Positions 59,707-59,948 of a stretch of 64,000 bases of DNA are shown here, in pieces. How positions within the stretch are numbered: position 1 is the first letter of the stretch; the number at the start of each line of letters is the position of its first letter. The position numbers were made by a program, and so were the translations under genes. The notes under the pieces are model-generated. The model was not told the DNA's origin. It saw only the letters and a program-made list of their open reading frames with translations, and did not search any database. Origin of the DNA: Escherichia coli (GTDB taxonomy: Bacteria > Pseudomonadota > Gammaproteobacteria > Enterobacterales > Enterobacteriaceae); the NCBI RefSeq assembly GCF_036507355.1, contig NZ_AP027877.1, one strand, 5' to 3'.

Positions 59707-59948
59707 CGCGATCTCTCTTAAATAAAAATAAACGTCGCAGATAATAAAGCTCTAATTAAACCAGGCACTATCAGAAATCGCTCATAACTAACGTGTGAAG
59801 TATTGTGTACTGGAGGGAGTTAATTTAACAATTTGAATTTACGTTATAGGTTTTACTGCTACTTTGATATTATTTCGCTCTCCTTAACTAAAAAGTTAAG
59901 TGGAGAGCGAAGTTAATATGTTAAACCACAGGGTATTTATTAATTTTT

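Follow-up and report, generated by a model that had tools for sequence, protein, structure and literature searches.

The palindrome that lies between yahK and yahL in this stretch of the Escherichia coli chromosome is the 3'-terminal stem-loop of the yahK mRNA. It is an ordinary stem-loop that has no U-tract, defines and protects the 3' end of the message, and represents no new element. The yahK 3' end is already present in two published tables, and the class of such ends is well described. Most probably it arises when transcription ends further downstream, likely through Rho, and exonucleases then shorten the RNA as far as the stem.

The window, meaning the whole stretch of 64,000 nucleotides that was analysed, is from E. 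coli and shares at least 99% identity with E. coli chromosomes across the yahK-yahL region. An identical hairpin is found in K-12 MG1655 at 343973-344006 on the plus strand. There are no indels between K-12 and the window over this stretch, and positions were converted as window = 403882 - K-12 coordinate. Both yahK and yahL are on the minus strand of the window, so the relevant RNA is the reverse complement of the sequence written in the first-pass annotation. The features are as follows.

59949-60998, minus strand: yahK coding sequence, NADPH-dependent aldehyde reductase (list of open reading frames and RefSeq annotation of matching E. coli genomes)
59949-59951, minus strand: yahK stop codon (list of open reading frames)
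59869-59948, minus strand: yahK 3' UTR, to the mapped steady-state 3' ends (Term-seq and TRS)
59867-59919, minus strand: extended stem, to which UUC/GAA pairs and, beyond a small internal loop, AU pairs (AUAUUA/UAAUAU) are added
59876-59909, minus strand: core hairpin, in which an AC bulge (5' arm) separates 8 G+C-rich pairs at the base from 6 A+U-rich pairs next to the 4-nt loop
59869-59871, minus strand: mapped RNA 3' ends (K-12 344013, 344012 and 344011)
59796-59855, minus strand: C-rich, G-poor tract and candidate Rho-loading region (C:G profile), holding the Rho-region peak at 59833
58891-59706, minus strand: yahL, the downstream gene on the same strand, A+T-rich, of unknown function and missing in about one-fifth of E. 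coli genomes

The hairpin sequence, cgctctccttaact-aaaa-agttaa(gt)ggagagcg, was found at 59876-59909 (34 nt) as had been reported from the sequence. In ViennaRNA it forms a stem of 14 pairs that is interrupted by a 2-nt bulge and capped by a 4-nt loop. The bulge had been recognized correctly and was written as gt, on the plus strand; in the mRNA it is AC in the 5' arm. The distance from the yahK stop codon had been given as about 30 bp and measures 39 nt. The start of yahL is further away, with the palindrome 165 bp upstream of it. There are no open reading frames of 20 or more amino acids on the transcribed strand of the intergenic region.

The hairpin is strong and non-random. The core has a folding energy of -17.5 kcal/mol on the minus strand (z -5.8) and -17.1 on the plus strand (z -6.1), and none of 200 dinucleotide shuffles was as stable. 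This is the energy calculation that the first-pass annotation had proposed, and its outcome bears out the long stem described there. When the stem is extended outward to 59867-59919, the energy is -22.9 kcal/mol on the minus strand with z -7.2 (fold of 59860-59925). When the entire intergenic RNA (245 nt) is folded, the eight outer, G+C-rich pairs of the core have probabilities of 0.98-1.0, except for one with 0.79. The hairpin ranks about 20th in stability among 31,980 sampled 40-nt stretches of the window, although the local G+C content around it is only about 31%.

The sequences next to the stem are not those of a standard intrinsic terminator. The tail that follows the stem on the minus strand is AAAUAAUAUCAAAG, which is A/U-rich and predicted to be unpaired. 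On the plus strand it is AAGUUAAUAUGUUAAACC. No U-run follows the stem on either strand. The beginning of the minus-strand tail, AAAUAAUAU, contains three U among its first nine residues and its first three residues are A. The sequence upstream of the stem, CAUAUUAACUU, has no A-tract. A terminator scan of 58800-61200 returned no site. The earlier view that this is not a standard intrinsic terminator is upheld.

Two published data sets place RNA 3' ends at the hairpin. In the first, MG1655 RNA 3' ends were mapped by Term-seq (Adams et al., 2021; PMC7815308, supplementary file 1). The sheet for LB at OD 2.0 lists an end at 344013 (+), which is window 59869. A later sheet, which from its position in the file appears to be M63, lists an end at 344011 (+), which is window 59871. 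The 61-nt sequence printed with each of these entries is the hairpin itself. Measured from the core stem, 344011 lies 5 nt and 344013 lies 7 nt downstream; from the UUC/GAA extension the distances are 3 and 5 nt. The sheet for LB at OD 0.4 has no 3' end called at the hairpin, and on the opposite strand no 3' end is listed near it (PMC7815308). These ends were classed as "orphan" solely because they lie more than 50 nt past the yahK stop codon (PMC7815308). In the second data set, TRS (PMC10687069, Supplementary Data 2), the terminus spans 344007-344015, has its summit at 344012 and is classed as "Primary yahK". It was significant in three libraries with a mean R of 0.985, where R is one minus the local read-through over the next 67 nt (PMC10687069). 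Hardly any 3' ends thus fall within those 67 nt and read-through is almost absent, in a row that may not be independent of the Term-seq data. The supplements of TERMITe have no entry for this site. Transcript ends that mapped elsewhere had been named as evidence against the first-pass reading. The ends map at the hairpin, and the idea of an RNA processing or stability element fits ends that lie 5-7 nt beyond the stem.

The same study reports a Rho termination region with its peak at 344049 (+), which is window 59833 (PMC7815308, supplementary file 2). It is sensitive to bicyclomycin, with a Rho score of 3.6 and p = 1.8e-5, and the peak is 36 nt downstream of the mapped yahK ends. The call is based on 800-nt windows and low counts, with 32 reads upstream and 24 downstream in the absence of the drug and 83 and 225 in its presence (PMC7815308, 344049). 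Since the downstream reads exceed the upstream reads under bicyclomycin, part of the signal must, and much of it may, stem from transcripts that start inside the A+T-rich yahL region and not from yahK read-through. The peak is located within a minus-strand tract, 59855-59796, that begins about 20 nt past the stem and has 14 C versus 3 G in 60 nt. The first-pass annotation had offered a protein-binding site, an RNA processing or stability element and a Rho-dependent pause without commitment to any one of them, and that interpretation is partly supported. The last of these options fits the evidence as far as its link to Rho is concerned, given the bicyclomycin-sensitive region just downstream.

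The same arrangement has been described for Rho-dependent transcripts. Dar and Sorek (2018; PMC6061677) found that such transcripts have precise steady-state ends directly after stable stem-loops. These stem-loops have reduced U, no upstream A-tract and an excess of C over G downstream, and they protect the RNA from PNPase and RNase II (PMC6061677). Adams et al. also found that Rho-terminated 3' ends are processed by exonucleases, and that their own Rho positions are closer to processed ends than to the true termination sites (PMC7815308). For the yahK transcript itself, we infer both Rho dependence and exonuclease trimming as the origin of the observed end. Transcription from yahK would pass through the hairpin, and most polymerases would be released downstream, most likely by Rho acting on the C-rich, G-poor untranslated RNA. 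The 3'-to-5' exonucleases PNPase and RNase II would then trim the ragged ends until the stable stem blocks them. The outcome would be a sharp 3' end at the observed distance of 5-7 nt from the core stem. In this way the hairpin would set the yahK 3' end and shield the message, and together with downstream termination it would separate yahK from the A+T-rich yahL. Points against this model are the low counts and wide windows of the Rho call, the lack of a called end in LB at OD 0.4, the partial loss of the C-rich tract in strains without yahL, and natural variants whose stem is weaker. A search of the literature for yahK with ProQ or bicyclomycin found nothing relevant.

The 3' ends could also be produced by a non-canonical intrinsic terminator, in which the stable hairpin alone, perhaps with NusA or NusG, releases RNA polymerase despite the poor U-tract. 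The sharpness and position of the ends, the near absence of read-through in TRS, and a hairpin energy in the range of true terminators all agree with this. However, a tail with so few U that starts with three A is a poor match to it, and the terminator scan found nothing. A Rho-sensitive region directly adjoins the hairpin, and sharp ends past U-less stems are typical of Rho-dependent transcripts (PMC6061677), so that sharpness does not discriminate between the two. Intrinsic termination at this hairpin therefore appears doubtful.

It is also possible that the end is a processing product. A yahK-yahL co-transcript would be cut by an endonuclease, for example RNase E, in the A/U-rich strand past the stem, and the hairpin would protect the upstream piece. 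The tail is suitable for this, being A/U-rich and predicted to be unpaired, and most ends that are neither intrinsic nor Rho-dependent have been ascribed to RNA processing (Adams et al., PMC7815308). However, TRS has very few 3' ends in the next 67 nt, the analysis found no sign of yahK being co-transcribed with yahL, and the hairpin is kept where yahL is missing. Cleavage of a co-transcript is thus an unlikely source of the end.

In E. coli, a total of 76 nt around the hairpin are identical in 3859 of 5107 matching records. The gene yahL is absent in about one-fifth of genomes through a precise 831-bp difference. The segment that is present or absent spans window 58882-59712, and at the empty site GCAGGTGG is joined directly to CTCTCTTAAAT. 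It consists of the open reading frame with 9 nt after the stop codon and 6 nt before the ATG. These limits place the likely ribosome-binding site, AAGAGAG, outside the segment, in sequence common to all strains. The identity band of strains that lack yahL holds about 1075 of 5116 matching records. In these strains the hairpin is kept, and its stem is perfect, free of the bulge and longer, at -28.6 to -30.6 kcal/mol. They also have an 11-nt deletion inside the C-rich tract, at window 59796-59815 (CCTCCAGTACA-like), and several substitutions. Since strains without yahL retain the hairpin, it is a part of yahK rather than of a yahL leader. A role as a yahL leader was considered and rejected on this persistence and on a consensus scan that found no promoter upstream of the hairpin. 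In one strain, 360D-1, an IS1 element directly abuts the hairpin edge (window ~59877), with the junction between ATATTATTTCG and GGTAGTGACTCC, and the rest of the hairpin and yahK are gone.

Other variants change the stem itself. A metagenome scan that was anchored on the flanks only found 95 loci and 7 variants, as listed here.

K-12 form: 75 loci
TC deletion in the 5' arm (-21.5 kcal/mol): 11 loci
Perfect stem with no bulge: 5 loci
Second deletion with a weak stem (-10.4 kcal/mol): 2 loci
K-12 form with one added outer pair: 1 locus
G-to-A mismatch: 1 locus

Because some natural variants weaken the stem, the structural constraint is modest, real but not strict. The indels in the hairpin look like slippage in the CTCTCC/GGAGAG repeats. 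Such features would be expected of a neutral palindrome without function, arising by chance or, for example, from replication slippage. The slippage-like clustering of indels at these repeats, the weakened variants and the restriction of the hairpin to E. coli are all in its favor. It is nevertheless a highly improbable explanation, given z of about -6 to -7 with no shuffle in 200 as stable, the 76 nt that are identical in most records, and RNA ends that map to the hairpin in vivo.

Two point substitutions were found in complete genomes, in strains LR-33 and T-HYM1, and both are C-to-T in the mRNA. They change G-C pairs to G.U pairs in the minus-strand RNA, while on the plus strand they give A.C mismatches. 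This is a small hint, from sequence comparison, that the minus-strand RNA is what matters. It bears on the possibility that the palindrome acts as DNA, as the binding site of a dimeric regulator that could, for example, control yahL. The inverted repeat is long and has few imperfections, and in strains that lack yahL it has none. In genomic SELEX, yahL is among the predicted targets of CRP (PMC3105977). RNA polymerase holoenzymes gave strong genomic SELEX peaks inside yahL, at the old K-12 coordinate 343660, with values of 27.1 for RpoF, 17.8 for RpoE and 5.6 for RpoH (PMC5493296). However, there is no CRP half-site (TGTGA) in the hairpin, and the sigma factor peak, being inside yahL, is about 400 bp from the hairpin by an unchecked conversion of the older coordinates. 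The CRP and sigma factor sites were rejected as an explanation because they do not coincide with the hairpin. The palindrome is also 165 bp upstream of the yahL start and persists where yahL is missing, the two substitutions retain pairing only in the minus-strand RNA, and the mapped 3' ends already explain the hairpin. A regulator site is very unlikely, and no support was found for the protein-binding site suggested by the first-pass annotation.

The hairpin could possibly do more than block exonucleases passively. It might be a terminator that is truly independent of a U-tract, or a regulated insulator, perhaps through a protein like ProQ that binds 3' ends, and so determine how much transcription leaks from yahK into the normally silent, A+T-rich yahL-xtpA-yahM region. 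If so, the bulged form, found with yahL, and the perfect form, found without it, would be functionally different alleles. We consider such an additional role quite improbable, and downstream termination with trimming back to the stem remains the preferred explanation.

Outside E. coli, the hairpin sequence was not found among the loci of YahK relatives, which have different neighbours and unrelated 3' flanks. In a protein search, YahK sequences from E. coli were 96-99% identical and all others were at most 91%. The loci of a 91% relative, of Salmonella bongori and of Pseudescherichia vulneris each have different neighbours and 3' flanks that are unrelated. A search of genome contigs with YahK found only relatives of at most 87% identity, and their downstream sequences are unrelated. 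The nearest contig match, in Enterobacter sp. BIGb0383, has an ordinary hairpin with a U-tract. The hairpin was thus found only in E. coli. The YahK relatives at 80-87% amino-acid identity belong to Betaproteobacteria, Pseudomonas and others, and there are none between 91% and 96%. This distribution suggests horizontal spread of the yahK gene, judged from protein identities.

Additional features were found elsewhere in the window. ARAGORN called a tRNA-Ser(GGA)-like gene at 58468-58548 on the minus strand, inside the annotated xtpA/yahM region. Its acceptor stem of 7 bp is perfect, with U-CCA after it, and the fold of lowest energy is a cloverleaf. It has no match to the Rfam tRNA model. Published 3' ends at K-12 345390 and 345418 are near the 3' end of this tRNA-like gene, and there is a strong Rho region at 345585. 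Possible explanations for this gene are a tRNA relic and a former integration site. A weak Rfam match to Betaproteobacteria_toxic_sRNA at 58322-58372 (+), with 20 bits versus a gathering score of 50 and E = 0.75, is probably due to chance. A whole-window hairpin scan also located clusters of very stable GCCGGATG/CGGATGCG-type hairpins, which are REP-like, at 27393-27532, 46549-46588 and 49325-49576.

The significance of the yahK hairpin beyond annotation is very small. It provides a defined yahK 3' end at 59869-59871 and an explanation for why a strong hairpin there lacks a U-tract. In practice it could serve as a clean test case, since it is single-copy and occurs naturally in bulged and perfect forms. 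It is suited to separating Rho termination, exonuclease trimming and termination at a U-less hairpin.

The hairpin can be compared with several known classes of elements. A permissive scan of 58000-61500 against Rfam 15 gave no match over the hairpin even at E <= 10. An integron attC site was considered, based on the GTTAAGT/ACTTAAC motifs and the gene-sized yahL indel, and was rejected on architecture. The motifs ACTTAAC and GTTAAGG are present, to be compared with the RYYYAAC and GTTRRRY boxes, but they are at the apex of the stem beside the loop and not at its base. The element is also too short, as a palindrome of 57 bp or more beside a gene cassette is needed, and the boundaries of the yahL indel (58882 and 59712) have no such core.

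Like REP/BIME and other dispersed extragenic palindromes, the hairpin is an intergenic palindrome that is downstream of a gene and able to block exonucleases. It differs from these in being single-copy. In the window, a search that allowed up to 3 mismatches gave no other match above chance level. One locus per genome was found in 5105 of 5426 complete E. coli genomes (~94%), and these include strains that lack yahL. Where a second match appears, as in some strains, the perfect palindrome has aligned to its own opposite strand. The search for the palindrome elsewhere in the genome, which had been proposed earlier, thus gave a single locus per genome and no dispersed copies.

With canonical intrinsic terminators the hairpin shares a G+C-rich stem base, a short loop, a location just after the stop codon, and a 3' end a few nucleotides past the stem. 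It lacks the U-tract that defines them, and the terminator scan misses it.

The closest likeness is to the class of Dar and Sorek (PMC6061677). The shared features are a stable stem-loop with a terminator-like stem and loop size, the lack of both a following U-tract and a preceding A-tract, a precise 3' end directly downstream, an enrichment of C over G just beyond, and a bicyclomycin-sensitive region alongside. The yahK stem is unusually long for this class, with 14 core pairs, and where yahL is absent with about 18 pairs that are not interrupted. Among the properties of the class, Rho dependence and exonuclease trimming are those that we infer for yahK. The yahK hairpin thus appears to add another member to a class known genome-wide since 2018.
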